A stretch of DNA of 64,000 nt from NCBI GenBank assembly GCA_951804945.1, contig OX638159.1, positions 34,534,001 through 34,598,000 of the forward strand, in the 5' to 3' direction. Every line of letters begins with the position of its first letter. The first letter of the stretch is position 1. Source of the DNA: Podarcis cretensis (Eukaryota). Made by a program: the position numbers and the translations under genes. Below are positions 3,200 to 54,289 of the stretch, in pieces. The notes under the pieces were generated by a model. That model was not told the origin of the DNA, did no database searches, and worked only from the letters and a program-made list of their open reading frames with translations.

Positions 3200-3922
3200 A
3201 GAAATGTGCTCCTCCCGTGCAGGAACACATTCCAAAGGATTATACTTTTCCCACTTGTTTTTCATTGGCATGGATACCTGGGCCATACCTAGAATCTATT
3301 GCATACAAACAGCACAGCCATGCTTCCTTTCATGTAGGGTGACTTTGAGACTCTGTCCTGACGTAGCGCATATGGAAGGCACTGAGGCATCGCTCCTGAC
3401 AGCTATGAGTTACCCACGACTCACTTCCATAAAGTCTGGAAGAACTTCACCTTGGTATTGGACATTGGATCATGTTCTCCCATACTCTCTTGGAGAGGCG
3501 AGCCATTGCCATAGCTGCCTTGCCAATATGCTTGTCTAGCTCAGTGTCAATGGAGAGGTTGCTGGTTGTGGTGGAACCCAAGTAGACAAAATTATCTACC
3601 ACCTCAAGCATGTGACTACCAATGCTGATGCATGGAGTGCTAGTGATGTACAGTGGTACCTCGGGTTAATAACTTAATTCATTCCAGAGGTCCGTTCTTA
3701 ACCTGAAACTGTTCTTAACCTGAAGCACCACTTTAGCTAATGGGGCCTCCCACTGCCGCTGGGCCGCCGGAGCACAGTTTCTCTTCTCATCCTGAAGCAA
3801 AGTTCTTAACCCGAGATAATATTCCTGGGTTAGCGGAGTCTGTAACCTCCAGCGTCTGTAACCTGAAGCTTATGTAACCCGAGGAATCACTGTACTGACT
3901 CAGGATGTTGGTCTTTGTCAGA
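3200..3922 (-). mobile_element. RTE-clade LINE fragment (RT region), interrupted by a MITE
   Basis: Minus strand reads KTNIL..ITSTP...LEVVDNFVYLGST..SNLSIDTELDKHIGKAAMAMARLSKRVWEN; left boundary approximate. Confidence 0.75.
3651..3892. mobile_element. Tc1/mariner (Tigger/pogo-like) MITE
   Basis: TIRs cagtggtacctcgggtta / taacccgaggaatcactg, TA on both sides. Confidence 0.88.
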
Positions 3923-3924
3923 GC

Positions 3925-4385
3925 TGCAGACACTGAGGAAGCTCTGCAGAAGCTCATGAACTGTTTTGCCCAAGCCTGCAAGGAGTTTCGGCCTTAACAC
4001 CCACCTGACAAAGAAGGTAAAAAGGTAAATGACTCCTGGACAGTTAAGTCCAGTCAAATTTGACTATGGGGTGCGGCACTCATCTCCGCTTTCAGGCCGA
4101 GGGAGCCGGCATTTGTCTGCAGACAGCTTTTCCGGGTCACATGGCCAGCATGACTAAACCACTTCTGGTGCAATGGAACACCGTGACGGAATCCAAGAGC
4201 GCACAAAAATGCTGTTTACCTTCCCGTCACAGCGGCATCAATCTATCTCCTCTCGCTGCTATGCTTTTGAACTGCTAGGTTGGCAGGAACTGGGACAAAT
4301 CAACTGGAGCTCACCCCATTGTGCAGATTTTAGCAAAGACTTAACATCCTGGGTCAGGACATCACCAGCACTCCACTCATCAGTT
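3925..4385 (+). mobile_element. RTE-clade LINE fragment, interrupted by a Sauria SINE
   Basis: ADTEEALQKLMNCFAQACKEF..LT before the SINE and NILGQDITSTP after it. Confidence 0.7.
4014..4331 (-). mobile_element. Sauria SINE (older, 5'-truncated)
   Basis: aaggtaaaaaggtaaa tail; core gggtcacatggccagcatgac ... gaactgctaggttggcagga. Confidence 0.85.
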
Positions 4386-7762: not shown

Positions 7763-7852
7763 AGCGCTGCAGCAGCTCCCAGTCCAGTGCTAGGAAACAT
7801 TCCCCCAGGAGATGGCATGCCAGTAGGTCCTGTACCACCCGGTTTTTTTCAG
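7763..7852 (+). CDS. SSBP2: SSBP2 coding exon ([30 protein letters not shown])
   Basis: ttttcag acceptor and gtattc donor; 90 nt, phase 0/0; peptide matches vertebrate SSBP2 as I recall it. Upstream LisH/LUFS exons lie before the window. Confidence 0.96.
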
Positions 7853-8207: not shown

Positions 8208-8543
8208 CAGTGGTGCCTCGCAAGACGAAATTAATCCGTTCCGCGAGTCTCTTCGTCTAGCAGTTTTTTCGTCTTGCGAAGCAAGCCCATTGACGGCTTA
8301 GCGGATTAGCACTATTAGCGGCTTTTAGCGGCTTATCGGCTTATCGGATAAGCAGATAAGCGGCTTAGCGGCTTAGAAAAGGGGGGGGGGGAGGAAAAAA
8401 ACCCGCAGGAACTCGCAAGACATTTTCGTCTTGCGAAGCAAGCCCATAGGAAATTCGTTTTGCGAAGCACCTCCAAAACAGAAAACCCTTTCGTCTAGCG
8501 GGTTTTCCGTCTTGCGAGGCATTCGTCTTGTGGGGCACCACTG
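8208..8543. mobile_element. Tc1/mariner MITE
   Basis: TIRs cagtggtgcctcgcaagacgaa / ttcgtcttgtggggcaccactg, TA TSD, internal gcggctta-like repeats. Confidence 0.88.
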
Positions 8544-10767
8544 TAGCATTATACTTATACATTGTAGGTTAGCAGTGTTTTGGAAGAACAGTAGAATAAT
8601 GCAAATTCAAACTAGCAGTTTGAAACTCTAGGAAGCTGTTTCTACTCTTTAACAGGTAGCTATGTAAATCTGTGTATAGGTGTGTTTTTGGTCTGCTCTC
8701 ATATCAGCAGTCCTGCTACTAATTAGTTATGTTAAGATAAGTGAGAAAAACATTAGGTTAGGAAGCAAGTTACAGAAAGCTTCTTCTCTGAAAGAGAAAC
8801 TAGAAAACCAAGTTAATGGGAGTGTACTGCCTTCATTGACTATTTCTGACTTCAGGCATAGAGCACAATAATAATTCAGGGTACACCATAATATATATAA
8901 TGTTCTATTGTATAAGTCGGAGAGAGGTGTTGGTTTACTTATTGTAACAGTCTGATGAGCACAGAGAGAAGTACCACTAACATATATTGAGAAAGAGTCT
9001 GCTGATTGGCTTGTAGCCTTTTCAAGCAGAGATGGAGTTGTGAAACTGCCCGCAACTGTGGTGTACTGTTCCCAGGATAGAGAAAAATGATTGAACAATT
9101 TTTAAAAAAAATTAAAAATAGTATTTTCTATTAAAACATCAATTCTGGTAAATGCCATCTCTTTTCTAAAAGTGAAAACAATGAAAATGCCACCGGAGTG
9201 GGCTGAATCTGTGTGCTTTATTAGATGTTTCAAGTGGACAGATTATCGGGGAACTATAAAAACTAGATCTTATATATCCATTTGAAAACGTTCAGTGATA
9301 GACTATTTTTTAAATATCAAAAATGAATATAAAGACAAGTTTGGACAACTGTGCAGGTTTTGTAAAAATTGTCTAATTATCATAACTAAAACTGCAGTAC
9401 TCTGGAAAGAACTTGTGTTATTCAGACCCATGTCTTTTTAAAGGTTTGTCCTCTGTTCTTTTTCCACCTGTGTCTACCCCTTGGGATTTCCTTTCTGTGT
9501 GATGCTTCAAATCCTTGATAATACCATCCAGTTCATTTAACCACAACCTATGACCCTTGAGGTTTTTTACTGAAGCAAAAGGATTAATTCCATCCTTGTA
9601 TAAAAACTGTAGTGATTTAAGGATTATATTGTCCATTTGAGGGCAATTCTTTTGTCTCTCCACTTTTCCGCATTTGATAACACAGACCAGTGAAATTGTT
9701 GGTCACTTACCCAGGAGTAAAGAGACCTACTCTGGGCTTATTCTTGGGGAATTACATTGCAACAAAGGACAAGGCTAACATAGAAGGGAGCTTTTCTCTA
9801 TTAGATGCAGACTGTTGAAATTTAACACCAGGAGGTTATGTTTCTACCAGTGCAATTTGTATGAGATAGATGGCAAGGATTATAGTTTTGAGGTTTCAGC
9901 TGCCTTTTTGGTGACTTTTTCAGTGTCTCAGTGGTGTTGTTTGAAGTATGTTTATAAAATTGTGTTGTTGATTGTGACTGGTGGCCTTTTTGGATAATAG
10001 AGTTAATCTTTATATAGGTTATGCTATTTTTACTTAAAGTTGCACTGTTGGGTGGCTTTTAGCATTGTTTAATTATATTTATATATTTTGATGATTTCAA
10101 TTCTTTAAAAAGTGTTTTATGGGAGTTAGTCAACTAGATATATAGCATTTTAATTTTTTAGCAATGCCCATGCCACTCAAAATGCACGAGGCCTAATAAA
10201 AGCACTTTTTTCAGTGCACCTTGTAGGTGTCTGTCTTTGTTGCTTTGGTGTTAATACTTCCCTCCTCCTTTCCTTATTATTTTTAAATGATCTGATTTTA
10301 AAAGCAAATTGGAAGTTAATTCAAACATATTGAAGGCTACACTTAAATGCTTTTGAAATTGAATCATCACTACTTTTTTCCATTGAATAAAGTATCTTAC
10401 CTTAGGTAAGGCATCATAACTAAATGCAATGCAGAACATGCGTCTGGTTCACACATCACACTCAATCATGATTTGGTATAATGTACGAGAGCAGGAATGA
10501 CTGGTGGTGAGCCTTGGGTTCACCAGCCCTCTCGTCTTCTCTTCCTCGTTTGTTTTGAAGAAACTGGTAGATGCCAATGGCACTGAAAGGTACATAAAAG
10601 AACAGATGGGCTATATAAAGCTGAGTAAAATATTGGTCATCAGGAAAGCGCATTGGATCTCTTATGATAGTCAATTTTAATAATAGGCTAGTTCAAAAAC
10701 AATGTTTCCAGCATAGTTAAAGGGGAGATGTCACCATGTATTTTTTTTTAATGTAATTTTAATCTCC

Positions 10768-16800: not shown

Positions 16801-19212
16801 GTGCTGGTGGTGTTTAAGTTGGCCTTAACATGCTGTTCTATGCTCTATTGTTTTACTTAGAAAGTTCTTTAGCGCATGTAGTTGCATCAAACAATTTTAG
16901 CTTGTTTCTATGTGCTTTCAAAACAGATAATTATTTAAATTGGGCAAATGTATATAATATAATTTTCAGTTTAGAAGCAAAGCATAAATGTTTTTGTGGA
17001 TTTGCATTGTACTCTTGTTGGATTTTTCCTAGTAAAGGAATCCTGTTATGATACATAAACTATTAATTTAAGCATCAGTATATAAATGCAGCCTCTTATG
17101 TACAATTTCCTTTTAAGGTTTTAGTAACAAGAACCACAGGAGTTCAGTTTTCTAGTTTCAGAATTTAGGAACAAAGACATATTCTGAAACTAGCTTTGTC
17201 TAGAAGTGGTCCTGCTGGTTATGGGATTACTCATGGACTTTCTATTTTGCAATCGCTAGTGTGATTCGTGTTGTTATAATATATTTTACCTTTTCAACAT
17301 AGGCTAGCCAGTTCTCAAACACTCAAGAGACATCTAGTGTAAAAGAACAGAATACATCGATTTCATGGAGATAACTGCAGAAAAACTAAAAACATGTTTA
17401 TATAATGTACCTAATCCAGAGTCATCTTGCATAAGCAGTGGTTCGCTTCTTGATGTGAACATTGTGTGCTCCTTCCAGAATGTTCATGTGACATTCTTAT
17501 TAGCAGGAAAGTCTGTTGCCACTGGAGTGCTCTATGTTCTTTTGTACATTCTTTTTGTTTGGATTAGAGACTACTGTGTAATATACAAATGGTGTGCATT
17601 TTTGGCACTGCAAACTGGGTAGAGAGAAGAAGAAAAATATTCTTACAAATTACGTTTAGGGCTAGGACCAGATTTCTTGGGAAGGGGCAGTTGCTGTGGG
17701 GTTGACAGTTCCCTCTTACCCAAGCACAGGATAGAGCCCAGCCTCTATATGCTTTCTCTGCCTCCACTGCTTTTGTGGTGGTAGTAACACCACTCTCTGT
17801 TGCCAGCCATGTTTTAGCAGTGGATGGAAGGTGGCACTTTTAACAGGATCTAAGCTATGCTCCTTTCTGTGGTTGCCACCAGCCATCTTAAGTTACTGAT
17901 TATGCAATGTTCCAGCCTATAGATTCCTATAGATTTCATAGGTCTGTAGCCCAGAGCATTATATGCCCCAGCTGTGTTTGCCAGTTTTTGAAGACTCACC
18001 TCTTTACATAGGCGTTCCCTTGATTTCTCAACCTGAGTCCTGTTTTAATCACACTGTTTTATTGTGTATTTTAATTAAGAATATTTATATTTTAATGGTA
18101 GGTTTATATTAGTTTTTATACTTTGCAAATTACTTAGCCTACTTTGGCATGTTATTTAACATGGCAGACAGTCACCATGGATGGGAGGCAAGCTAGGCTC
18201 TTGTTCAGGAGTGGAACAGCTGCCCATTACTAGAAAAAGCATTGGGGGAAAGAGGTAAATGGCATCATGGTTGGGCCAGTGAGGGGCCATTGGACTGTGC
18301 CCAACCTGGCTGAGTGCTAGTGCCAGGCCCAAGTAAGCTGAAAAAATAAAGCAGTGTAAAAGGTAGATATAGGTATGTCTCAGTACTATTCAGAGCACAA
18401 ATGATAGTGTAATGCAATTGAAGTCCTGTCAGTATGGTTGTGACCTGCACACTCACAGGTATCTCTTGCATTGTTTGATCTCTTGGCTTTGATTTAAACC
18501 TTTTCCTCCTCTCTGTTCCTAGCCACTGCAATTTACTACAGCATTTTTGCTCTACCTTCTGTTACTAAGATACCCAAGGCAGCTATCACAATTTACTATT
18601 TTACTATCATCATAACATAGTAAAAAAAATAAATGCTTTTTTTGGTAATTAGATATAATTTATTTTTACTTATTTCTTATGACCCCTGCTTTAGCAGTAA
18701 CATTAGCAAAGAAGATGACATCCACACTGTCAGTGTCTGTAATATCTAACATCCTGTTCAATATTATTTTTAGAATCACGTTTTCACAATTTCTTGAACC
18801 ATCATCAGTCAAAAAATTGAGAAGAGCATATTTTCCATAAATCCACACCAAAGAAGACATTCTCCTCCCTTGTAGTAGTGTTCACAGAATTGTTAAAGCA
18901 AATTTGCATCCTATAATAAAATCTTGGAATTAATTTGTCGTGGCACCCTGCTGCAGCCATGTGTTTTGAAGAAGAGTGTCATAAGTAAAACTAATTTCTT
19001 ATTGTTAATGAGTGAGCTAAAAGCCCATATATGTTATACTAGAAAACTTTCAATCCCTGCTGTAGAGTTAGTACTATCAGAGTACTACAAGTGCTCACCC
19101 TGCTTTTTCTCACATCTGGCCAGCACTGGTGAGATGTAGTCCTTATCCTTCTACTTCCGTTCCTTTACGCTATTCTATCATGGAAAATGTACAAGTATTT
19201 CCCCCACACAAA

Positions 19213-19350
19213 TAGCTCAGTCAGTAGAGCATGAGACTGTTAATCTCAGGGGCATGGTTTGAGCCCCACATTAGGTTAAAGATTCCTGCATTAGAGGGGG
19301 TTGGACTAGATGACCCTGGAGGTCCCTTCCAACTCTACAATCCTAGGATT
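19213..19350 (+). mobile_element. tRNA-Lys-derived SINE with a CR1-type 3' tail
   Basis: Head tagctcagtcagtagagcatgagactgttaatctcagg...gagccccac resembles tRNA-Lys(CTT); tail gggttggactagatgacc...ggtcccttccaactctac is CR1-like. Confidence 0.8.
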
Positions 19351-20502
19351 CATTTGTGTAGAGCTGTGCGTCTTGACTTCTGTCCTCCTTCTTTGATCAC
19401 AGTTTTCAGAGTCCTGTTGTAGGCAGCTTGATTGCTCTTGTGACATTTGTAACTTCCTGCTGCCTGTTGTTGTTTTACTAATCTTGGGTTTGTATGTCAG
19501 CCTCCCAAAGCTCTGTTGCTTCTGCCAAACACTACCTGAAAGTCAGTTTTTAAATATAGGAAACTGTTTTCTGTTTTCTATAGGTTCTGGTGCTAAATGT
19601 TTTGTGGTGGTGGTGGTGGTGGTGTGTGTGTGTGTGTGTGTGTGTGATAGAATAACATTGTGTTTTGCAACTAGACTTCATATAGATGTTAGTTCATCCC
19701 ATGGGATATTTGAGTAAAAAAATGAGGTTTGTACAGTTGCATTTCTTTTTGTATTGCTTTTTTTGCAGGGTTAACACTTGAACTTCAAAATGAAGCTAAT
19801 AGATTTTATAAAACTTTTTTATTTATTATGCACAGTATGGCAAATTGGTTTAAATTCTTCATTGTATTAATTTGGTTAAGGGTAATTTACAGGTACCTAA
19901 ATTAACAAAACAAGTGTTCAGATTAAAATAATAATAATCTTCCTCCCCATCCCACATCTTACTGACTTTTCACATGCTTGGATTAAACTTTTTTCTCTGT
20001 TATGAAGCACATACAGTAGATTTGATAAGTAAACAAAAGTTTTTGCCTTCAGCCAGTGAAATTCTATATTTTTGCATCTAGCATCACTGTTCAATTTCTA
20101 CAGTGGAAGTATTCCAAATTGTTTTGTCTCTTGTAGTTTGTTCTGGCCCAATCACTGGTACAAGTCTTTCCTAGTGCAAGACTGCATGTGCAATTACACT
20201 GTTAATGGGCGTCTGATATGCGTGGTCCTGCTAAATGGTTTTTAGTGGGTTAATATTTTTCATCACCATTTCTAAAGTACTCAAAATGGTGCTTGTACGC
20301 TGCACTGGAGCAAGTAGCGTGTTGAGACCCTGGATGGAACTGCCACCCAGATTCAGGTCATGTTCCATCCTGAAAAGTGTTGGAAGTTTGGAATGAAATT
20401 GGGGGAAAATAAAAAAATTAAAATTAAATAAGGAATAAAATGGGATAAATAGCCTAGGAAAAGAATGTTTCTAATCTTTCCCCCAATTTTATTAATCCAT
20501 AG

Positions 20503-20586
20503 GGACCTGCAGGTTCACAGCCTTCACCCCATGCACAGCCCCCCACTCACAACCCCAGCAATCCCACGATGGGACCTCATGGTCAG
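20503..20586 (+). CDS. SSBP2: Putative SSBP2 cassette exon (GPAGSQPSPHAQPPTHNPSNPTMGPHGQ)
   Basis: atccatag acceptor, CAG|gtagga donor; 84 nt, phase 0/0, open; resembles the GPPGSQPSPH...MGPHxQ segment at the same position in SSBP3/SSBP4. Confidence 0.85.
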
Positions 20587-22914
20587 GTAGGAGGGTATAC
20601 AAAAGCACCCATATGCAACACTTTACTTGCAACTGCCATTACAACGATAGTTTGCTCATTTCAGATTTATCATTTAACTTTTCTCTTGTCCACCTAAAGT
20701 GGTTCGTATTTTGAACCACACTTTTCCTACCCGCTGTCCCCTTTCCCCATAAATCTCACCATCTACTTAATAAATTGTGTGGTATTGTTCGTCTGTCTGT
20801 CTGCTTAGTTATTTTCCCAATACCCATGTACTTTGTAACAGCAGTTTTGGCATACAATGTGGGCCCGCAAATTTTCCGCAATAGTATTCATACATGTGAA
20901 TTTTTACTACTTATCTGGTTTTCTGAAATTCCTGAATGTAGCATTTTTCATATGTTTTGGACCAACAATTGACTATTTTAAACCATTATTTGATTGACAC
21001 AAATGTAATAATAGTTTGGAAATTGATGGTTTCAACTATTGTTCGTTAAGCTTGCCAAACCCTTTGATGCCAAAATGTTGGAAAATCATTTGGAATGTTT
21101 TCATATACTAATTTATTCCTATGGCACCGTTTACTTTCTTTCAAATAGGCCTAGAACCTGGCTTTGTTTTTTCAGTTCTTGAGCACATACCAGTGATCTT
21201 TAGTTGTGGTTTCTTATTCTGAGGGGAAAGTGTAGGCTTCTTATGTGGGGGTATTGGGAACTAAGCAAATGAGTATTTCAAAATAGTGCCTACTTTGCGG
21301 TGTAAACATTTCCAAAATTTGGGGAGGGGGGATTTGGGAGCTATGAGATCTGTATCCATCATTTAATAGATCATGGCATTTCACAAGCTACACAATTCAG
21401 AGTTCTGTGTTGTCTAACTACAACTTGACTTACAGGCATTGTGGTACACCAGTAATAATTTAAATCAAGTACAAATCAAGTTCAGCAATAAGGCTATTTT
21501 CCTTTTTCATCGGTATCTCTTAGTATTTTGATATCAGGTAGTATTTCTGCGTGTTGTGTGTAACGTTATGTAATGTTCAGAAAACATTTTAGATTATATG
21601 TCTTACTGTTTAAAGTTCTTGCTTAGAGGTTGGCAGCTGTTTAGGAAAACAGCAGTCAACCAAGGACATTCCATATAAATAGCATGTGTTCAAGTGATAT
21701 ATGGGTTATTCTTGATTATTCCTTCAACTAAACACCTCTTCTTTATAATTATTTTGATCCAAAAGGCAGTATACTGGCCTAAAACTTCTATATCTAGCTG
21801 CCTACAAAATGAGATTCCATTGCAAGTTAGCAGAGAGGCTGTTTGGGTTTAGCATGCAGTTAATGAGCAGTTTAAATAATTGAATTTAGCACCGTAGTAA
21901 CCTAACAGCAAACATCTGCTGTATTAATGTAAGAGTTTGGAAATGAAGATCTATCTGGGTCTTGCAAGTTGTATCAGTGACTCAGTTACAGAGCTCAATT
22001 TTTTATATTATATGAATATTTACAAGTTTTTATTTGCATTGTCAATATATTGGGTTTGTAAACTTTGTCTAGATCGTAATCTTTATTTTAATTCTCTTCT
22101 CTATGTGTCATGTAAACAAAGTTCCAGAGAATAATGTTCTATGTCTAGCTACAATTATAATGTGAATCCCTGAAACTGGAACATTATCAAAGATGCAGAT
22201 ATAGGTACTAGACTCACAGTTTTTATAGACAAGACAAAAGTCAAGAAATTGTTCTTTGAATTGCAAGTAGAGCTAAACCAAAATATTTTTTATGTCAAAA
22301 TGTGGGTATTTGATAAGGGAGAACCTTTTGTTAAACAGTAAAGCAAGCTGCTTCTCATCCAAGTTCTTGACATTAATCATAACTCAAGCAGAACTGTACA
22401 GAATCACCCCAAGTTTGGTTTTTAAGGCCATGAGGAACAGTCTAAGCCTCTGAACAAGCTCAGGAAAGCTCCTGGCCTGACTTTGCTAAGCTTAGACACA
22501 GTCCTTTTATATGCTCTTGGTAAGCTGTGTCTTAACCTCATCCCCAGCCCTGCTTACAGTCATGTGGCCCAGAAAAGTGCTAACACAGTATGTATAAAGG
22601 GACTGTTCCTACATTCCTAACTTGCATTACAGGATTCCTATGAGTGTAGGCACTGTTTTCTTTCAGCTCTACAAGAACTGGGTTGTAGGTCTTGCTTTTC
22701 TGAGAACAGAAGTGGTGATGCTTAGTGGCCCCAGAATGTTGATAGTCCCAGATTACAGGAATCAATAAATGTCAGTTAAGAAGTATAGTAACATATGTCG
22801 CTGCTCAAATAATTTAACGTTATTGTTGGTTGTGAAATTGGTGTCAAAGTTTTTCTAGGATTTAATTTTAAATGGCTGTATCTGTGTTCTTAATGTAGTT
22901 ATTTTCTTTTGCAG

Positions 22915-26495: not shown

Positions 26496-26849
26496 GGGAC
26501 GCGGGTGGCACTGTGGGTTAAACCACAGAGCCTAGGACTTGCCGATCAGAAGGTTGGCGGTTCAAATCCCCGTGACACAATGAGCTCCCGTTGCTTGGTC
26601 CCTGCTCCTGCCAACCTAGCAGTTTGAAAGCATGTCAAAGTGCAAGTAGATAAATAGGTACCGTTCCGGCGGGAAGTTAAACGGCATTTCCATGCGCTGC
26701 TCTGGTTTGCCAGAAGCAGATTAGTCCTGCTGGCCACATGACCCAGAAGCTGTACGCCAGCTGCCTCGGCCAATAAAGCGAGATGAGCGCCGCAACCCCA
26801 GAGTCGGTCACGACTGGACCTAATGATCAGGGGTCCCTTTACCTTTTAC
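26496..26849 (+). mobile_element. Full-length Sauria SINE
   Basis: gggacgcgggtggcactgtgg head with A/B boxes, acctttt tail, exact 12-bp TSD tatgtgtgcatt. Confidence 0.92.
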
Positions 26850-27989: not shown

Positions 27990-28129
27990 NNNNNNNNNNN
28001 NNNNNNNNNNNNNNNNNNNNNNNNNNNNNNNNNNNNNNNNNNNNNNNNNNNNNNNNNNNNNNNNNNNNNNNNNNNNNNNNNNNNNNNNNNNNNNNNNNNN
28101 NNNNNNNNNNNNNNNNNNNNNNNNNNNNN
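27990..28129. other. Assembly gap (140 N)
   Basis: Run of n in the sequence. Confidence 0.99.
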
Positions 28130-29544: not shown

Positions 29545-30454
29545 AGTATGAACCCAAAGATTGGAGACTGTTCATTGACAGCAGCAAGTGATCACTGAAA
29601 TGTGTTCTGCTACACAACGGCAACCAGTTTGCCTCTATACCCCTGGCTCACTCGAGTACACTGAAGGAGAAATATGAAGCGGTGAAGTATGTGCTGGAGA
29701 AAATTGGTTATGATCAGCATAAGTGGTTTATTTGTGTTGACCTAAAGATGGTGAACGTTTTGTTGGGACAACAGTCTGGCTTCACCAAGTACCCATGTTT
29801 TCTGTGCATGTGGGATAGTAGGGACCGTGCTCAGCATTACACGAAGAAGGACTGGCCTGTGCGGGAGGAATTGGTGCCTTGCAAAGAAAGGAACGTCATC
29901 AACGACCCTCTGGTGGACAGAGACAGAATAGTCTTCCCACCGCTGCACATCAAGCTTGGCTTAATCAAGCAGTTCACCAAGGCTCTGGACAAGGATGGTG
30001 ACTGCTTCACTTACTTGTGCCAGTTGGCATCTTTGATGGTCCTCAGATCCTTCAGTTCATCAGAGATCCAGAGTTTGGAAACTCAATGAACGAAGTGTAA
30101 CTGGAAGCGTGGAAGGCATTTGTTCTGGTAGTGAAGAACTTTCTTGGCAACAATAAGGCCAGAAACTACGCAGAACTTGTCAGCAACATGCTGACTGCTT
30201 TCAGAAACCTGGGGTGCAACATGAGCGTCAAGATGCACTACCTATTTTCACATATGGACCGGTTTCCTGAGAACCTGGGTTCAATGAGTGACGAGCAGGG
30301 GGAGAGATTCCATCAGGACATGAGAGAGATGGAGACCAGGTATCAGGGTCGCTGGGACGCAGTCATGATGGCTGACTACTGTTGGACTCTGAAGAGAGAC
30401 CTCCCTGCCGCTGAGCATTCCAGGAGTTCCAAGAAACGGAAGTTCAAGCCCTGA
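29545..30454 (+). pseudogene. Chapaev3-like transposase pseudogene (C-terminal half)
   Basis: WRLFIDSSK*SLKCVLLHNGN, ICVDLKMV..LLGQQSGFTKYPCFLC.WDSR, PPLHIKLGL, GIFDGPQI, KMHYLFSH, SDEQGERFHQD, MMADYCW; stop at 29589, frameshifting deletion near 30022, second stop near 30098. Confidence 0.85.
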
Positions 30455-30587
30455 AGTTTGAAAAATGGTGAAGCAACATGCAATTTACGTGTACTTACCT
30501 TTATCAATGCCCACCATTCAGTTTACAGTAAACCTGACCTGATGGAGAGAAACGGATGCCATTTCCTGATTCAGCAGTGCAAAAATA

Positions 30588-30704
30588 CCGTATTTTTTGC
30601 ACCATAACACTCACTTTTTTCCTCCTAGAAAGTAAGGGGAAATGTCTGTGCGTGTTATGGAGGAAATGACTACGGGTGGCATGCCTACAGATTTTCCTCC
30701 TCTA
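30588..30704. mobile_element. Truncated Tc1/mariner MITE of the same family as 38112-40539
   Basis: ta|ccgtatttttt...ggggaaatgtctgtgcgtgttat matches the reverse complement of 40460-40539. Confidence 0.75.
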
Positions 30705-34359: not shown

Positions 34360-34610
34360 GTATCCCAATTTTAACCAGAAAATGTCAAAGCAATGCAAAA
34401 TATTTTTTTTAATGTTTTTTGTTTTTTTTTAAATACTGGAAATGCATGATTTAGGCAACAAATAATTAAAAAGCTTACACAGGTAAGAGAAATGTATGTA
34501 ATTTTGCTTAACGTTTCAGCAATCACTTTAGGATTCTGAACCACTTCCATCTTCCTATACATGGATGCAACTTATAATTTTATTAATTATGGAAGACTAA
34601 CACAGCTTTA

Positions 34611-34959
34611 GGGTGGCGCGGTGGGTAAAACCTCAGCGCCTAGGACTTGCCGATCGCATGGTCGGCAGTTCGAATCCCCGTGGCGGGGTGTGGTCCCGTC
34701 GTTAGGTCCTAGTGCCTGCCAACCTAGCAGTTCAAAAGCACCTTCAGGTGCAAGTAGATAAATAGGGACCGCTTACCAGCGGGAATGTAAATGGCGTTCC
34801 GTGTGCTGCACTGGCTCGCCAGATGCAGCTTGTCATGCTGGCCACGTGACCCGGAGGTGTCTGCGGACAGTGCTGGCTCCCGGGCTATAGAGTGAGATGA
34901 GCGCACAACCCTAGAGTCTGGCAAGACTGGCCCGTACGGGCAGGGGTACCTTTACCTTT
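34611..34959 (+). mobile_element. Sauria SINE, near full length
   Basis: Same subfamily as 2686-2981 (ggcccgtacgggcaggggtacctttaccttt tail); exact TSD aacacagcttta. Confidence 0.92.
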
Positions 34960-35635
34960 AACACAGCTTTATGAATCATTCTTTCAAACCTGAATACGTC
35001 CCTTTGGTAGAGCATCCACAGCAGGCAGAAATTACCAAGAAGGCAAGAACTGTTTGCCTTTGGCCCAGTGCCAAATTGTGTCTGGATGCTTGTTAAATCA
35101 TAGCTGGTTCTCCTCTGTACCTCTTCAGTTCTTCCATTTTGAAAGGCCAGACTTCTCATTGTCATTGCGTCTTGCACAAGCATTGGGGAAGTGCCTTCTC
35201 ACGAACCATTAATGGAGCAAGCAAAGCAGATTGGATATTGGTGTCCTTCAGTTTGAATACTAATGGATTCTCATCTGGGTTCAGTTATTTTCCATGTTAA
35301 AAGAAGGAAACTGCTGCTGGTCCATACCTATGCTATATTTGCTCCTGTTTTCCTTTTAACATCTGCAACAAATCCCTTATCAAGCATTTGCTCACAGTCT
35401 AGCCGAATGCTGCTTATAAGCAAAATACATTACAGTTGATGTTAACAATAATGTGTACTGTACGTCCAATTTGAGAGCAGTTCTGAAATGTGTTCTTCCG
35501 TGTTCTTCCGTGGCACTGTAAGCATGCCTTGAATTCCTTGAATTCCGTGGCACTGTAAGCATGCCTTGAATTATTGTGTTCACTGGCTGTTTTCCATTGA
35601 AGATGTGTGACCCCCTACATATATTTTTGTTTCAG

Positions 35636-38010: not shown

Positions 38011-38195
38011 GTAAGTATATATTTGATGTTTGGCACTGTTTTTCTCTAAGCAGATTTATTACAGTGGTTAAACACTTAAAAACAAAAGAACACCTTGTTT
38101 AAAATGAAGTACCGTATTTTTCGCTCTATAACACGCACCTGACCATAACACGCACATCGTTTTTAGAGGAGGAAAACAAGGGAAAAAACATTCTG

Positions 38196-39383
38196 TTGTT
38201 TTGTTTTTTTAATAATTTTTTATTAAAGTTTCAACAAATTTTATAGTAACACAAAAAGCAAAACATCACAACAACAATACAAACAAACAATACAAAACAA
38301 AAATCAAACAAAATTAAAAGGTTCAATTCTTGGTTTCATGTAGCTTTCTTTCCGGACTTCCTCACATCTCCCTTTTCTGTTTTCAAATTTCCAATTTAGT
38401 TTCAGCAGATTTTTCCCCTATTTTAACCAGATTAATATGTCTTAATTTCTTTTAAAGTTAACCATTCCTGCTGCTAACCCATCTTTTTATCTTCCATCCT
38501 TAGGTTAACTAAACTGTGATTCTCTTATTGGTTACTAATGAAACATCTTTGCACATTCCTTCAGCTTTGTCACTAATGCCACATTGTCTCAATATCCTGC
38601 ATCATATTAACATTCATACAGTTTACAATGTTTTTGCAGATAATCTTTGAATTTCTTCCATTCTTCTTCTATTTGTTCTTCTCCTGTATCTCGGATTCTG
38701 CCAGTTATTTCTGCTAGGTCCATATAGTCCATCAATTGCATCTGCCATTCTTCCAGAGTGGGCAAATCTTGTGTCTTCCAATACTTTGCGATGAGTATTC
38801 TTGCTGCTGTTGTTGCGTACATAAAAAAAGTTCTATCCTTCTTTAACACCTTCTGATCGACAATGCCCAGAAGGAAGGCCTCTGGTTTCTTCAAGAAGGT
38901 ATACTTAAATACCTTTTTCAACTCATTATATATCATTTCCCAGAATGCCTTTACCCTTGGGCATGTCCACCAGAGGTGAAAGAATGTTCCCTCAGTTTCC
39001 TTACATTTCCAACATTTATTATCGGGCAAATGGTATATCTTTGCAAGCTTGACTGGTGTCATGTACCACCTATAAATCATTTTCATAATATTTTCTTTCA
39101 AGGCATTACATGCCGTAAATTTCATACCAGTGGTCCATAACCGTTCCCAGTCTGCAAACATAATATTATAACCAATGTCTTGTGCCCACTTAATCATAGC
39201 TGATTTAACCATTTCATCCTGAGTATTCCATTTTAACAGCAAGTTATACATTCTTGACAATGTCTTAGTTTTAGGTTCTAACAATTCCGTTTCTAGTTTC
39301 GATTTTTCCACCTGGAAACCTAGTTTCTTGTCCACGTTAAAAGCCTCTCTAATTTGGTAATAATGTAGCCAATCTCGCACTCT
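38196..39383 (-). mobile_element. 5'-truncated L1-clade LINE (ORF2 C-terminus + 3' UTR)
   Basis: Open frame to the stop at 38607 with the CCHC motif CWKCKETEGTFFHLWWTC; AATAAA and A-rich tail; exact 20-bp TSD acaagggaaaaaacattctg (38176-38195, 39384-39403). Confidence 0.9.
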
Positions 39384-39453
39384 ACAAGGGAAAAAACATT
39401 CTGAATGAAACAGTGGATGTATCATTTTTGTGCTTCATCCTGTGGCCACAGAC

Positions 39454-39995
39454 ATGTGATCTGATGGTGAATTTGGGGTGACCCAATGCAAAAATCCTGA
39501 GAATCCCTGTGGATCCATGCTTTGTAACCACATTTTTGCACCATTGCAGCCCCAGGCAACAGTGGGTGCGTGATTTTTGGGGGGCAGGCTGTAGCCATGG
39601 ACATGCTATGTGCTCTGATGGTGAATTTGGGCTGACCCAATGCAAAGATCCTGAGGATCCATGGGGATCCATGTTTTGTAACCACGTTTTTGCACCATTG
39701 CAGCCCCAGGCAACAGTGGGTGCGTGATTTTTGGGGGGCAGGCTGTAGCCATGGACATGCTATGTGATCTGATGGTGAATTTGGGGTGACCGAATGCAAA
39801 GATCCTGAGGATCCATGTAGATCCATGCTTTTTAACCACGTTTTTGCACCATTGCAGCCCCAGGCAACAGTGGGTGCGTGATTTTGGGGGGGCAGGCTAT
39901 AGCCATGGACATGCTATGTGATCTGATGATGAATTTGGGGTGACTGAATGCAAAGATCCTGAGGATCCATGTAGATCCATGCTTTTTAACCACAT
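39454..39995. repeat. 154-bp tandem repeat, about 3.5 copies
   Basis: Units start at 39454, 39608, 39762 and 39916 with atgtgatctgatggtgaatttgg. Confidence 0.92.
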
Positions 39996-40148
39996 TTTAA
40001 GTGGGGAGGGAAGGAAAAACACAGAACGGACAAGGAGCACGAGAGAGGTGTGCAGAGAAGCAGCTGGCTAAGAATGCAGGAGAGGGGTATAACGGGAGGG
40101 AGGAAAGGAAGGCAAAAGTTTTCCCTCACCTACCCACCCAAGCCAGCC

Positions 40149-40150
<2 letters not shown>

Positions 40151-40188
<38 letters not shown>
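40151..40188. repeat. (CT)n microsatellite
   Basis: Seen directly. Confidence 0.95.
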
Positions 40189-40193
<5 letters not shown>

Positions 40194-41185
40194 CTGCATG
40201 TTTTCAGCAGCACGGAGCACAGAGACGACACTCTGCTTTCCCCTCTGCTTGCCTGGAGGGGAGGGGCTTTCCCTGCTCTTTGTTCCGTTTGAGCAAACAC
40301 AGCAAGGAAACAGAGGTGGGTGGGCAGTAAGACCCTGAGGCAGAATGCAGGAAAGCAGCCACTTCCTCTTTTCAGGTTTCCCTTCTAGGAGACGCGCGAT
40401 TTGATTTTTGCCTGATTTTTTTTGCCTCCCCTCGCGCCATTTGGCTCCAGGGACCACACATTCGCTCAATAACATGCACAGACATTTCCCCTTCCTTTTT
40501 AGGAGAAAAAATCTGCGTGTTATAGAAGGAAAAATACAGTACTTGTTATTGGATTATCAACACTCTGAGGGCATTATGCAAACGAGATTATCATTTATAG
40601 AAGGTTGAAACTTAATCTTGATACGTGTTCCATTAAATGGATTTAGCTTATTGATTTTCCTGAATATAAGGGATTATTTTCCTGATGATCTCTAATCACT
40701 TATCCTATTTGTGATCAATGTATTAAAATGCATGTATTCAGTATTGATGATGCAAATGCCATAATCCAGACAGCTGCATTAAGTATGTTCAACGCTTTTT
40801 CCCTTGCCATCCTGAAACTACCAAGTATAACCCCCATCAATATGCCACCTCACAAACCAGAAGTTAACACCTTTTGGGGGCACGTTTTGATTTTTGGTTT
40901 GTAGCCGGTGGTGACTTTAATAGGGGATCTAAGAGAAACTAGACATCTGTTGGTGGTGCACTATGTGAGAGTATACATATATGTGGATGATAGAGGAAGA
41001 GCTCTGCTTTGGACCTCATATGGCAAATATAAAATATATGTCAATCACTCGTGAGAATTGAGGCAAGAATACAATGTGGCAGTGCTATGGGTTTTATATT
41101 TTCGCCCTTAAATTCTTTCATTTACATAAAACAAGAATGAATTCATACATACAGCATTGGCTCTCCTGTTGTGTTCTTCAAATAG

Positions 41186-46805: not shown

Positions 46806-46835
46806 TATTCCCCCAGCATGACAATGAGTGTGTGA
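46806..46835 (+). CDS. SSBP2: SSBP2 last coding exon (YSPSMTMSV*)
   Basis: tttttcag acceptor; conserved SSBP C-terminus followed by TGA. Confidence 0.96.
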   Translation, partial: YSPSMTMSV

Positions 46836-47390
46836 TCCATTACCAAGTCTCTTCATGAAGGCTGCACTGAGTTGGCCCTCTCCAGAGAGCTACTAAAGAA
46901 GAAAAATTACTCATCCCTGTGTACAGTTTAACAGAAACAATCTCAGCCACAATTGGACCCACCATTCCCCCCACCCCAACCATCTTTCCAGTTTTGTGAA
47001 GAAAGTGGGTCCTGATCTGGTTTCAGCAACTGTGTGGCACATCAGAGCTGCCCAAGACTGAACTGAACTGCAAACAGTTATCTGTGTATGTATATGTAGG
47101 GATAGGTGTATTATGTATGTGTGTGTTACAGAAACATAGATATGCGCACATACATATATAGACCTGCAGGACGTTGTAAAATATTATCACATGACATCTT
47201 AAGTAGAAATAAGAAATAGGGACTTTTATTCCATCTTTTTTCATGTTTACATTTTAACTATTAAAAGAACTGCTTCCCTCTCCCCATCTGAACTGTTCCA
47301 TGCTGTTTATATCACTGCTTTGTAAGTTATTTTTTTAAAAAGATCTCGGATAAGTTCTGTTTTTTGTCAATGTCTGCCATCATGGATAGG

Positions 47391-47396
47391 AATAAA
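47391..47396 (+). promoter_or_regulatory. Proximal poly(A) signal of SSBP2
   Basis: AATAAA about 555 nt after the stop, followed by GU-rich ggttgtgtttg about 30 nt downstream. Confidence 0.55.
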
Positions 47397-47474
47397 ACTG
47401 CTTTTAAGAGGGCTCTCTCTCATAAGGTTGTGTTTGATACCAATAACATGTGAATTGAAAACTACACTATCTCA

Positions 47475-48333
47475 CAGTGGCGTAGCGTGGGTTGTCAGCA
47501 CCCGGGGCAAGGCAAGTAATTTGCGCCCCCTAACCCCTGGATTTTAGCACTCGAGTGCGAGCGCGCCCCCCCCAGATGTTGCGGCCGCCCCCCTGCACCC
47601 CCCACGCTACGCCACTGGGGCTGGGGGCGAGCGAAGGAGCCAAGGACCCCCCCCCTTAAGGCTCAGCAGGAATTTATTAAATTTATTATTTGCGGAGCCC
47701 CCGCGGGCCGAGGCAGCCGAAGCCCCCTCCCCTCGGGCGTCTCCCCGCCCCCTCCTCTCCTTGGGCTGTAGGTGGAGCCCGCGCTCCGAGGCGCTCCAGA
47801 TCCGGGCTTGGCGAGCGCCTCTCCTCCCCCCGGCCTGGTCCGGGGGCTTCCAGCCGCGCTCCGTCCTCGCCCGACCCCCCCCCCCCCGCGGCTGAGACTT
47901 GCGCTGAGAGCCGGAGCCAGCGGCGCCCCCTTCCGCCGGGAGACCCTCGCCCGCCCGCCGGCTTCCTCTCGGAGGGTTTTGGGGAGAGCAGGGCGCGACG
48001 AGGCCCCTCGGAGCTCTCCTCCCTCCCAGTCGGCAGAAGCAGCCGCCGCCTGTGGCTGGGCCGATGGGATGGCGGCGGCGGCGGGGTGCAGAGGCTGCCC
48101 GTGCCCGGCCAGGCGTTTGTGGCGGCGTCGGCGCTGCTGCAGCGGCTGCTCCTCCTGCAAGCAGTGAGTGGAGCGCAGCTGCAGCCGCAGCGGCGGGGGG
48201 CGCAAGGCTGGCGGTGGCGGCGGGGAGCCCGGCGGAGGAAGGAACTTGTCCCTTCCCTCTGGACTCGCGCCCCCCCCCAGATGTTGCGCCCGGTGCGGCC
48301 GGCACCCCTGGCACCCCCCACGCTACGCCACTG
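47475..48333. mobile_element. Composite non-autonomous hAT-type element with GC-rich cargo
   Basis: TIR cagtggcgtagcgtgg / ccacgctacgccactg; exact 8-bp TSD ctatctca (47467-47474, 48334-48341); extra internal right TIR ending at 47617. Confidence 0.9.
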
Positions 48334-51300
48334 CTATCTCAAGAAACTGAAGAAACACATTAATCTTGCTTAACAAATAAAACTTGTCCTTTGCCTAAAA
48401 AGTGAGAGAAAAGAAAATAGAAGGGGTTCTTTTCATGTTTCTTCGTAGAAGCCTAATACTGCGATCCTAAACATATTTGCATGGTAATAAGCTCCACTGG
48501 GATAAGTCAGATTTACTTCTGGTAATGTTGAGGATCAGGGTGCAAATCCTTCAATATTTGTTTTCAAGGGAAGTCTGAGTATATCTCAACTTCTTTATCT
48601 ATGCAGAGAAATACAACATTACTGTGTTGGGCTCTGGTTTGATTGCTGTAGCATCCAGCAATAAAAGTGGCAGGTTTTGACTTTCTGCCTTTCGAAAAAA
48701 TAAAATCTATTTAGTATGATCTTCCATAGATGTAGTAATAGATTTTTTCTTTTAAGTTATAGATTCTATTCTAAGGCATGCTTTTTCTAACAGTCCACAA
48801 TTGTCTACTGGGATGACTGACACCCTAACTCCCAATTACCTGTTACAAGTTAAAGGCTTATTAACTTTGTGTTGGGAGGGGAGGAAAGTTTCTTGCCCTT
48901 CTTCAATGGCCCTTCAATCTCTCTTCTTCCTTACCCACTATCTGCAATTTCCCCTTATCTATAATCTTCCAATGGTTCTGAGACCATACAAATATTCAGA
49001 TTACTTCATTTAAATGTAGCATCTTAAAGAGTAGCATCCTAAATGTAGCATCCTGAATACTTATAAATTTATTATGCAATAAGCTTTTGTGGACTAGAAA
49101 AAGTTTATGCCATAATAAATTTGTTAAGTCTCTAGTGTTTTTCAGGACAAAAACAAACAACAAACTTGGTTACCCCTTTGGAATGCAAGTCAGATTCCTT
49201 CAACTATCATTAAGGCCCAAATGACAGAGGAATTGCAACATGCAACACACAGGAAGAGAGAGCAAACGTAAAGGGAAGTTGTGAGAATTGTCTCCATCCC
49301 CTTCTATCCTCTGGAAGCCTCCTTTGGATCAAATAATCTTCCATGAATGGAAGGAGAACATAGATCCCAAGTACGTCATGTTTTCATCTACTCTGTGCCT
49401 AATTTTTTCCACTTCTGTTTGCACACTTCCCCAGTATACCACATAAATTAAGAGCTAATAATGTTGTATACAACATCTAAAGACACTGCTATCTATAAAT
49501 TTGTGTTTTTGTCTGAATTGCTTTCTACTCCCTATTAAGTCTTTATAGAGGCTAGTAATATAGAAGACAAAATTGAAATAGGAAATTGTTTTCCAAATAT
49601 TGGTTTCTTTCTAACATTCTAGGCATCCAGTTATACTGTGTCTTATAGTCATATGCAAGCCTTAAAGCCAAGCCCCCACCCTGCCTTTGCCCCAGAGAAA
49701 GAAATGTATGTTTAGGCTAATTAAGACACGAATACTTTCTTCTGTGGGAATGCCGATAGAATTGTTTTAGCACAGGTCTGCATATGGAAATTTTTCACAC
49801 AGTAACTGATCAATCATATGGATTTTTTTTTTTAAGAGGAAGGTCGGTAGTTAAAAGAGCACCTTCCTTTTTTTCATCCTGCTTATACTTGTAAATTGTT
49901 CCTGAATAAACTCATATGAATTCATGTCTGTGCCTCTCTAGGTATCCTTCAAAAAAAGCTGTAGAGTTCTAGCTACAAATATAGTCTACCTTTTGAAAAC
50001 AGCGATAAATGTTTAATACATAGCTCTTTCTAATCCAGATCTTAATTATTTGCAGGCTTTTAAAATGCCAGATGCAGACAGAGTATCAGGTAATGGAGAC
50101 AGAATAACTGAAGTAGACAAGTGAATCATTTTGGGTGGGCTCTATGTATATAAACTGTTGAAAATGAGTTTAAAATATTTTCTTTGTACTTGGCATGAGG
50201 ATGGTCTGAAGGTGAACATTCTCTCTCCCCTTCCCCCCATCTCCTGCTGAACTATCTTTAATGTTCATAAAATGAGTTGTTGTAATTTACAATGCTTCTT
50301 CTGCCAGCACTTGCCAAGTAATATGTCTCAGCCAAATCTGGATAAACGGTTGCATAAGAGTAAACCCCTAGCACAGTTCCTTCAAGCTTTTGTTTCTGTG
50401 TCACATTTGCCAAACTTATATCAGGAAGCCTATTCATTTTCATCTGTTTTTTCTTTTTCTTTTCATGGTTATCAGCTGAACATTTTCTTGCTACTTTCCT
50501 AGCTGATTTGGTACATACCCTAAATTCCTTCTCATCTATACATTGGGTCCTAGTTGAAAGTATTGTTGCCAGCATAACTGGCATCCTATAGGCACCTTAT
50601 TTAGATGTCATTTAACATCCATAATGGACACAGCATTTGCCAACTGAGTTTTTTTAAAAATAAAATAAAAGGAAAATAATTTAACACTAATTTAAACATA
50701 TGGATCAAAATCCTCCTACAGTTGGTCATTAAGGACACCAAACATCAAATAATGGTTTGACACTTTGGGAATGAGCCTTATGCTCAGCACCCCCTTCAAC
50801 CCTTCATGTACAATCCTGGTTGGCAAACCATAGTCTGCCAGTTTGAATGTAATGGCCAGCTATGGTTTCCTGCAAACCAGGAAATAACTCATCAAGCAGA
50901 ACATGCAGAAGAAGGCAGAGAGGGAGGCGTAAGCAGAGAAACATCAAACCATGTTTGGTGTTGCGTGTGAAATGACCCCATTGAAAGCAACGGAGATTAA
51001 ATTAGTTATTGACTATAGCAAGATTGAGGCTATTTGTAAGATCAAATTGGGTGTTTTGTATCCTTATGGATAACAACCTGGAATCTTGCATCAAAAAGAG
51101 AAGTTGGTTAAAAGTCTATCATCACTGTGATTATCTGCCAACATGTTGGATGTAAGTGAGGCTATGGAGTTAGATGGATTTGATGAGGGAGTAGTTACTG
51201 TTAAGTTGTACCTTTCATTTGTGCCCTCACTTTGCCTTGGTATCACAAGTTTTAGCCAGTAACTATTGCACTGACTCTTCCTGAGTCCTTTAAATAATTC

Positions 51301-51511: not shown

Positions 51512-51871
51512 GGTAAAAGGTAAAGGTCCAGTCAAAGGCGACTATGGGGTGTGGTGCTCATCTCGCGTTTCAGGCCGAGGGAGCCTGCGTTTGTCCACAG
51601 ACAGCTTTCCGAATCATGTGGCCAGCATGACTAAACCGCTTCTGGCACAACAGAACACCGTGACAAAACCCAGAGTGCACGGAAACGCTGTTTACCTTCC
51701 CGCCATAGCAGTACCTATTTATCTACTTGCACTGGTGTGTGTTTGAACTGCTAGGTTGGCAGAAGCTGGGACAGAGCAACAGGAGCTCACCCTGTCATGT
51801 GGATTTTTTGCCGACCTGATTGGCAAGCCCAAGAGGATCAGTGGTTTAGACCACAGTGCCACCTGCTCCCC
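51512..51871 (-). mobile_element. Sauria SINE
   Basis: ggtaaaaggtaaagg tail, Sauria core, ccacagtgccacc head. Confidence 0.87.
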
Positions 51872-53240: not shown

Positions 53241-54289
53241 CAAATTCCTTCTTGTTGTTTAGAGACCAAAAAGTTAATAGAATTTCACTTTCCCCCTGGG
53301 GGAAGATTCTAACACCTATTCTATAGTCCAGCAGTTCCTCACATGAAATGCAGAAACTTTTATTAAAGGTTCTGTATTTTCACAGTCCTTGTATCATTTT
53401 GGCTTTTTTATTATTACTGAATAAACAGTATCGAGACAACCGCAATAAAAATTATTTTTATAAGTACAGTAGTTTACACAAAAATCATTGGCAAAATCTT
53501 ACATGGAAGCCAATGCATGCCCTGTTTACATGAGTAGTGTAATGGTTCTAATTACTTTTTATGGAGCAAACCACTATCAACAGAAATAATCCAATTCATA
53601 CAGTCATCCACAAAAATGGCTTATGTTGAATTCTTGGGCTTTCCTGTCCAAACAACACAAGAGTTATGCCAGTCACAGAAAGTGAAGAATTTCAAATTAC
53701 GTTGGAAACCGCCACCCTCTTTATTTCTACACTCATACTGCCCAGATAATATATGAGGGCTGTTCTTAGCAGTCTCCAAAGTTAAGAGAATCAGGACCCT
53801 TCTGGAAGATCAAGATTCCACCTAGCCCATCATTCTTTTTCCAGTAGTGGCTGTCATGTGCTTCCAAAAAGTGCAAAGCATGAAGGCAACCTCTTTCCCC
53901 ATGATGTTTTCCCAACATCTGGCATTCAGAGGTATGCTGCTTCAGCTAATGTAAATGTTCCATTAATTAATAATGGCTAATAATGGCTAATGTTCTGCAA
54001 ATCCTTCTCCATTCACTTTTGTTGTAATACTTACCAATGGCTTACCAAGGCTCACAGATGGGCATAACAGCTACCTTGTCTTTCCACCCGTTTTCTCCAT
54101 CCCTAATTCTCCATCCCTCACAGAAAATCAAACTCCTAAACATTTTTCAGCAAATCTGAATTTCTTATATTTTGGTATCTTGTTAATGAGCTTAGTTTAT
54201 TGTGCAGTTTATTTCTCGTTTGCAAGACATACTCTATTCTACACGTCTTACTGCACAATAAACTAAGCTCATTAACAAGATACCTAATG

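Follow-up and report, generated by a model that had tools for sequence, protein, structure and literature searches.

A composite insertion of 859 bp (positions 47475..48333) in the 64,000-nucleotide stretch of Podarcis cretensis DNA analysed here, hereafter the window, fits a non-autonomous hAT-type element, judged from the sequence of its ends and of the duplication that flanks them. A complete 143-bp mini element is followed in it by 648 bp of GC-rich cargo and by a second right end, and a perfect 8-bp TSD encloses only the whole unit. The reading preferred here, put forward tentatively, is that of a young non-autonomous hAT with host DNA as its cargo (a Pack-hAT whose internal TIR is solo), which would have moved as a composite.

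Boundaries and superfamily of the insertion

The insertion has a GC content of 0.73 and contains 87 CpG (CpG o/e 0.77). Its parts, in order along the window, are the following.

47467..47474, plus strand: left TSD copy, the 8-mer ctatctca, flush with the left outer TIR
47475..47491, plus strand: left TIR, 17 bp, a perfect inverted repeat of both right TIRs
47492..47560, plus strand: subterminal part of the left end, together with the middle of the mini element
47561..47617, plus strand: inner right end, 57 bp, with its TIR at 47601-47617; it closes the 143-bp mini element and no TSD copy follows it
47618..48265, no strand assigned: cargo, 648 bp, GC 0.73, 67 CpG, CpG o/e 0.77
48266..48333, plus strand: outer right end, 68 bp, with its TIR at 48317-48333
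48334..48341, plus strand: right TSD copy, ctatctca, flush with the right outer TIR

The left TIR at 47475-47491 is perfectly inverted both at 47601-47617 and at 48317-48333, and no additional copy of these 17 bp was seen in the 64-kb window with up to 4 mismatches allowed. Among all perfect 17-bp inverted pairs lying at most 3 kb apart in the window, an 8-bp direct repeat was present only around the outer TIR pair, and the chance of a given 8-mer standing there as a TSD is 2.4e-5 at the base composition of the flanks. A generic scan of the window for TIRs with TSDs (10-bp inverted ends, TSD of 4-10 bp, span of 80-4000 bp) returned two candidates, the 859-bp element and one with a 4-bp repeat.

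The terminal five nucleotides of hAT elements follow the pattern YARNG, and the ends of the insertion, which read CAGTG, fit it. The perfect TIR of 17 bp and the TSD of 8 bp also agree with the definition of the superfamily (TIR of 10-25 bp, TSD of 8 bp) given in the accessible part of PMC3942097. The hAT assignment of the initial annotation is thus upheld, and so are its left TIR at 47475, its 143-bp mini-MITE ending at 47617 and its second right end, all of them present with perfect 17-bp TIRs, as well as the perfect TSD that it had placed around the whole 859 bp and not around the mini-MITE.

Pfam matches were seen in 0 of the 7 ORFs of the element, which leaves it with no recognisable transposase, and the hAT TIR has no partner in the window, where the best matches near the transposase-like ORFs at 29592-30454 carry 3-4 mismatches in 12; the subgroup (Ac, Buster or Tip) therefore cannot be named. 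Pieces of the TIR (12 letters, or 8 letters together with Tip100) had no match in the open literature, a scope outside which lie the repeat databases and most subscription journals, where the family may be catalogued. The accessible parts of PMC10058329 and PMC12676858 contain nothing on the family of this TIR, and no report of a lizard hAT transposon with a captured CpG island was found in the open literature. Rfam holds no family across the element, and the fold of the whole element is no better than that of shuffles (z -1.35; 2/20).

Mini element and the two right ends

The 143-bp mini element is short, non-coding and bounded by TIRs, and thus MITE-like; it folds as a TIR hairpin (z -5.4, reached by 0 of 200 shuffles) and has no other copy in the 64-kb window. 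Direct repeats of 2-11 bp were sought around 47475-47617 and none was found, so that the mini element, having no TSD of its own, is not an independent insertion at this locus. No TSD copy follows the inner end, which speaks against a duplication of a resident element together with its own flank as the origin of this end.

The two right ends (47561-47617 versus 48266-48333) align with 79% identity over 68 columns and differ in an indel of 9 nt, two further indels of 1 nt each, a single substitution and the length of a C-run (9 versus 8). The extra 9 nt had been noted in the initial annotation and are indeed there, but its list stopped short of the remaining differences. About five right-end differences in about 60 bp, next to a perfect TSD, perfect TIRs and no excess of TpG or CpA, favour two templates over slippage as their source.

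Subterminally, the inner end is 9 nt shorter than the outer one. An 8-mer of the left end (47521) recurs in the outer right end (48284) and is absent from the inner, and an 11-of-13 inverted match links the left end to the outer end, with no counterpart in the inner; the subterminal alignment score of the outer and left ends is also attained by 190 of 2000 shuffles. This gives only a hint that the outer right end may be the intact form.

A perfect 12-bp palindrome (47547-47558) lies just ahead of the inner right end, and looping out 47561-48265 leaves a 154-bp element that keeps both TIRs and the same TSD. Both features speak for an alternative that we hold to be unlikely, capture in situ, according to which a MITE of about 154 bp made the TSD first and later broke, the palindrome being one possible break point. 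Repair would have used a sister MITE at an ectopic site as template, taking over the right end of that sister along with 648 bp of its flank until the copy was joined again to the resident right end, so that the composite never transposed. Two different right ends are also predicted by it. In the accessible part of an animal-wide survey of Pack-TIRs (PMC8277862), most single-copy cases go back to gap filling in situ, their source is found within 15 kb in 57% (multicopy ones are always distal), and in primates a plain TE occupies the orthologous site in 91 of 97; these primate figures stem, however, from long-dead TE families. Such captures favour nearby DNA, yet no donor is present in the window, and the perfect TSD and the lack of CpG decay point to an insertion so recent that it would leave little room for a second rare event. 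The initial annotation had concluded from the outer TSD that the unit transposed as one piece. This is not established, because removal of the block leaves the 154-bp element in the same TSD, and capture inside such a resident MITE gives the same picture.

The repeated end also bears on the quality of the assembly. An artefact would require that the assembler entered the repeat, left it into the flank of another copy and returned; the window is scaffolded, with one 140-N gap at 27990-28129, and the 143-bp unit may exceed a short read if the family is abundant. Two misjoins would be needed for this, the second through a 68-bp repeat at 79% identity, whereas both outer junctions are exact, the TSD is perfect and the nearest gap is 19 kb off, which makes an artefact very improbable.

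Other repeats in the window

A SINE-like repeat is present in five copies at about 75-90% identity (2695-2990, 4040-4331, 26496-26849, 34600-34962 and 51520-51871), four of which served as CpG controls for the cargo. A weak Rfam tRNA match at 19206-19265 (30.9 bits, E 0.018) is probably a SINE head or a pseudogene. The region 38110-40541 is a non-autonomous DNA element with inverted ends of about 31 bp and TA at both termini, which we take to be of Tc1/mariner type, and a partial second end of it is found at 30583-30668. Its interior holds a tandem array of 3.5 copies of a 154-bp unit at 94% (39454-39998), a low-complexity part with a GC content of 0.53 and, nested at 38196-39383, a minus-strand LINE 3' fragment bounded by a perfect 20-bp duplication (38176-38195 and 39384-39403); the 275-codon open frame of this fragment gave no Pfam match and presumably resembles the C-terminus of L1 ORF2. 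Two successive open frames of 165 and 117 aa at 29592-30454 look like a broken DNA transposase, which we assume to be Chapaev-like, with no Pfam or PDB match and no tie to the hAT TIR. A CpG-rich MITE that begins and ends with TA and has an 8-bp tandem array in its interior occupies 8209-8544, with related ends at 3650, 25889 and 33471, and an inverted repeat of 38 bp (97%, 41-bp spacer) with no evident TSD lies at 54171-54287.

Composition of the cargo and candidate promoter features

Two features inside the cargo are referred to below.

47671..47691, no strand assigned: pure A/T run of 21 nt
48064..48169, plus strand: candidate coding part of a first exon, with ATG at 48064 and 48069 and a donor-like GTGAGT at 48164-48169; inferred, with no protein homologue

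The 1-kb flanks of the insertion have GC contents of 0.38 and 0.36 and CpG o/e values of 0.14 and 0.12, and the merged region 47301-48580 is the only one in the window to pass CpG-island thresholds (500 bp, GC of at least 0.55, CpG o/e of at least 0.65). The cargo is thus GC- and CpG-rich, as described in the initial annotation, and non-repetitive within the bounds of the window. Its CpG o/e (0.77) is that of the mini element (0.77), next to 0.84 for the outer end and 0.68-0.77 for 3 of the 4 SINE-like copies, and its GC content (0.73) stands between those of the element ends (0.67 and 0.79) and above those of all other repeats measured in the window (0.42-0.61). The o/e values of TpG and CpA are 0.91 and 0.71 in the cargo versus 1.26 and 1.26 in the window; as neither is in excess, the CpGs of the cargo can be regarded as undecayed. 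The earlier argument, in which intact CpGs pointed to a young or unmethylated insertion, carries less weight than was given to it, the o/e of 0.77 being equal to that of the element ends and of nearby SINE-like copies. The state of the insertion suggests a young-looking element.

A switch in GC skew could be seen at 47970, with the cargo C-rich up to this position (-0.18) and G-rich beyond it (+0.17), and it reads identically on both strands. It is matched by 3 of 2000 dinucleotide shuffles and, under harder controls, by 3 of 95 other 648-bp windows (5 of 95 for either sign) and by 66 of 2000 shuffles of 24-bp blocks. GC skew rises at the start site of human CpG-island promoters in the accessible part of PMC3787257, and the skew argument for a promoter accordingly draws on human data. 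The succession of an ATG in strong context and a donor, a pattern picked post hoc, occurs in 11 of 2000 shuffles. The cargo shows no enrichment of GC boxes, of which 1733 of 2000 shuffles have as many. The A/T run is non-random, its length being reached by 0 of 5000 mononucleotide shuffles, and holds two minus-strand AATAAA hexamers (47673 and 47682). The subterminal 8-mer recurs inside the cargo at 48198, at a distance of 135 bp to the right end; 166 of 2000 shuffles contain such a copy.

The similarity of cargo and ends in GC and CpG o/e speaks for another alternative, in our opinion rather unlikely, namely that the cargo is the interior of a TE. The 859 bp would then be either the ordinary consensus of a multicopy non-autonomous subfamily or the product of a mini element nested in a longer GC-rich member, its new left end being mobilised together with the old right one; in the nested case the 8 bp that follow the inner TIR would represent the leftover half of a TSD. 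Nesting would also account, without a separate truncation, for a resemblance of the second element to the first that is confined to its final 68 bp. This alternative is further consistent with the 8-mer copy at 48198 (but see the shuffles above), with the lack of a protein homologue in any frame searched and with the likewise patchwork interior of the element at 38110-40541 (154-bp tandem array, low-complexity part). In maize, the fillers of Ds-l4 are mostly untraceable to a source (accessible part of PMC3260210). The skew switch, the ATG and the donor stand, on the other hand, in the order of a promoter, no other repeat measured in the window reaches the GC content of the cargo, and the interior of a TE may even so once have been host DNA.

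Search for the source of the cargo

No source of the cargo was found in the 47,474 bp upstream or the 15,667 bp downstream (best E 5.0), and the 64-kb window contains neither a donor locus nor a second copy of the cargo. Three queries in 3 of the 6 frames gave nothing significant in a set of 5.8 billion proteins (6696 candidates at E 0.001, 302 at E 10 and 8000 at E 1), and one plus frame had 0 matches in a set of 1.84 billion; the frames missing from these two large sets are the two ATG-led plus ones and a single minus one. The Atlas gave no usable match for 2 of 2 queries, exact protein look-up 0 of 9, and the best of six PDB queries had an E value of 0.097. These blanks do not exclude a host origin, because three frames were left out and UTRs or short divergent N-termini would escape such searches.

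A match to the GLUD1 transit peptide was rejected (E 0.45, not significant, stopping after 37 residues), as was an origin from bacteria, plasmids or phages: plasmids and phages had no match, and an exact 21-mer in 596 Gb of prokaryote genomes extends to just 25 bp and is taken as chance. A scan with bacterial promoter and terminator models, which are unsuited to vertebrate DNA, returned nothing.

From its sequence features, then, the cargo is fairly likely to be host DNA, and it is probably, though not demonstrably, a fragment of a host promoter; the skew switch and the ATG followed by a splice donor may be taken as modest support for a host origin. The proposal in the initial annotation that the cargo came from a promoter or first exon keeps its CpG-island composition and some promoter-like order, but host DNA is not established in the face of a missing source and of a CpG o/e shared with the TE ends and with 3 of the 4 SINE-like copies.

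Genomic setting at the SSBP-family gene

The insertion lies in the 3' region of a gene whose exons run along the plus strand and belong to the SSDP family, 5 of the 6 scanned exons matching Pfam PF04503. We assume the paralogue to be SSBP2, the name given in the initial annotation. Two features of this setting lie ahead of the element.

46806..46835, plus strand: last coding exon and stop of the SSDP-family gene, the family being assigned via PF04503 on upstream exons
47391..47396, plus strand: first AATAAA after the stop, 84 bp ahead of the element

For the last exon, of 9 codons, the placement relies on a motif plus an AG acceptor. The distance from the stop codon to the start of the element is 640 bp, and the next AATAAA is at 48376, so that the spacing of the two hexamers is 118 bp at the reconstructed empty site. 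A proline-rich candidate exon, possibly an alternative one, was also seen at 20500-20590, between the SSDP exons at 7763 and 22906. At its new site the cargo is most likely a neutral passenger, and a function there is not indicated.

Proposed origin of the composite

In the preferred reading, a mini element made of the left end and the shorter right end would have resided elsewhere, in a GC-rich promoter/first-exon region, and the adjacent 648 bp would have acquired the right end of a second family member that differs slightly from the first. The joining may have taken place through repair synthesis that ran through the end of the first element into its flank and then switched template, or may go back to a second, 5'-truncated copy lying downstream in the same orientation. 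A hAT transposase acting in trans would then have used the left end and the outer right end as a pair, the latter chosen perhaps because the inner one is without 9 nt of subterminal sequence; this weakness of the inner end is a guess, since so many shuffles attain the subterminal match. Insertion of the 859 bp downstream of the first poly(A) hexamer in the SSBP gene would finally have given rise to the 8-bp TSD.

Transposition as a unit is favoured by the perfect TIRs and by a TSD around the whole unit only, and the absence of a nearby source together with the apparent youth of the insertion tilts the balance towards it without amounting to proof. A far wider version of this reading seems doubtful to us. 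A family of hAT MITEs would habitually land in CpG-island promoters, bypass or read through its own right end and spread promoter/first-exon DNA, the internal end being a scar that records the mechanism. The present copy would then have placed an orphan CpG island, free of methylation, in between two poly(A) hexamers in the SSBP gene, altering the choice of 3' end or starting new sense or antisense transcripts, and it would represent a TE-linked class of capture that the animal survey filtered out, in a barely sampled clade.

Significance

The routes by which cut-and-paste transposons acquire host DNA are still debated (gap filling, fork switching, end bypass and paired ends), and a retained internal end could discriminate between them once compared with the host genome. 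If the cargo is a working promoter fragment, such elements would be a way of scattering CpG islands. At present there is one locus, with the source of its cargo not found, and both animal Pack-hATs and this layout in plants have already been published. The new aspects may be the taxon, squamates being almost absent from the animal-wide survey (accessible part of PMC8277862), and the class, i.e. TE-linked capture.

Comparison with known cargo-carrying elements

Animal Pack-TIRs number 370 cases in the accessible part of the survey by Tan et al. 2021 (PMC8277862), 208 of them hAT, so that the initial annotation overstated its case in calling capture little described for TIR elements of animals. 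The row of that survey for the lizard anoCar2 gives 0 hAT and 0 Pack-TIR. Its criteria ask for an interior of 100-5000 bp, a unique non-TE parent at 90% identity or more and no TE within 100 bp of the parent, and its pipeline drops cases with a TE-linked parental copy. The interior of the present element measures 648 bp between the ends of one TIR element, as judged by the internal TIR match and not by a family consensus. It thus works like a Pack element with an internal end, strict membership of the Pack-TIRs requiring a parental copy, and the best explanation predicts that it has a TE next to its parent, i.e. that the survey filter would remove it. What it shares with animal Pack-hATs is a non-TE-looking interior of 100-5000 bp between non-autonomous hAT ends and a TSD around the unit; unlike animal Pack-TIRs, it retains an entire mini element plus a second right end and has no identified parental copy. 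Pack-hAT-N8_XT, which is a hAT present in multiple copies in a frog and holds 291 bp from the 5' UTR of CAPSL (same source), resembles it in that its cargo comes from a 5' gene region, for which the 859-bp element offers only a candidate.

Nearly the same layout is described in the accessible part of Du et al. 2011 (PMC3260210) for maize Ds-l4-483, a hAT that combines a complete element with trapped DNA and with a second, truncated copy that ends in a TIR and a TSD. In that 7.3-kb unit the first element is flanked by the TSD too, giving three TSD copies, whereas the inner end of the 859-bp element has no TSD copy and its two right ends differ. Three ends, a TSD at the outer pair only and, in some cases, gene fragments are also found in MULEs of tomato that have a solo extra TIR (Ferguson and Jiang 2012, PMC3310237, accessible part), which differ in being plant elements of the Mutator superfamily, with TIRs of at least 100 bp and a TSD of 9-11 bp. 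Nearly all of these MULEs are single-copy (1 of 12 has another copy), which counts against the preferred reading of the 859-bp element.

Capture between neighbouring ends has been proposed for Pack-CACTA (PMC6379663) and for maize Pack-hAT (PMC8903248), and Ac macrotransposons excise (PMC9910405), as far as the accessible parts of these papers go. They show it in plants only, and the donor arrangement that they involve is not seen for the 859-bp element. In the Pack-CACTA model and in Ac macrotransposons alike, the outer ends of two close elements mobilise the DNA between them and an internal end can persist, as in the composite proposed here.
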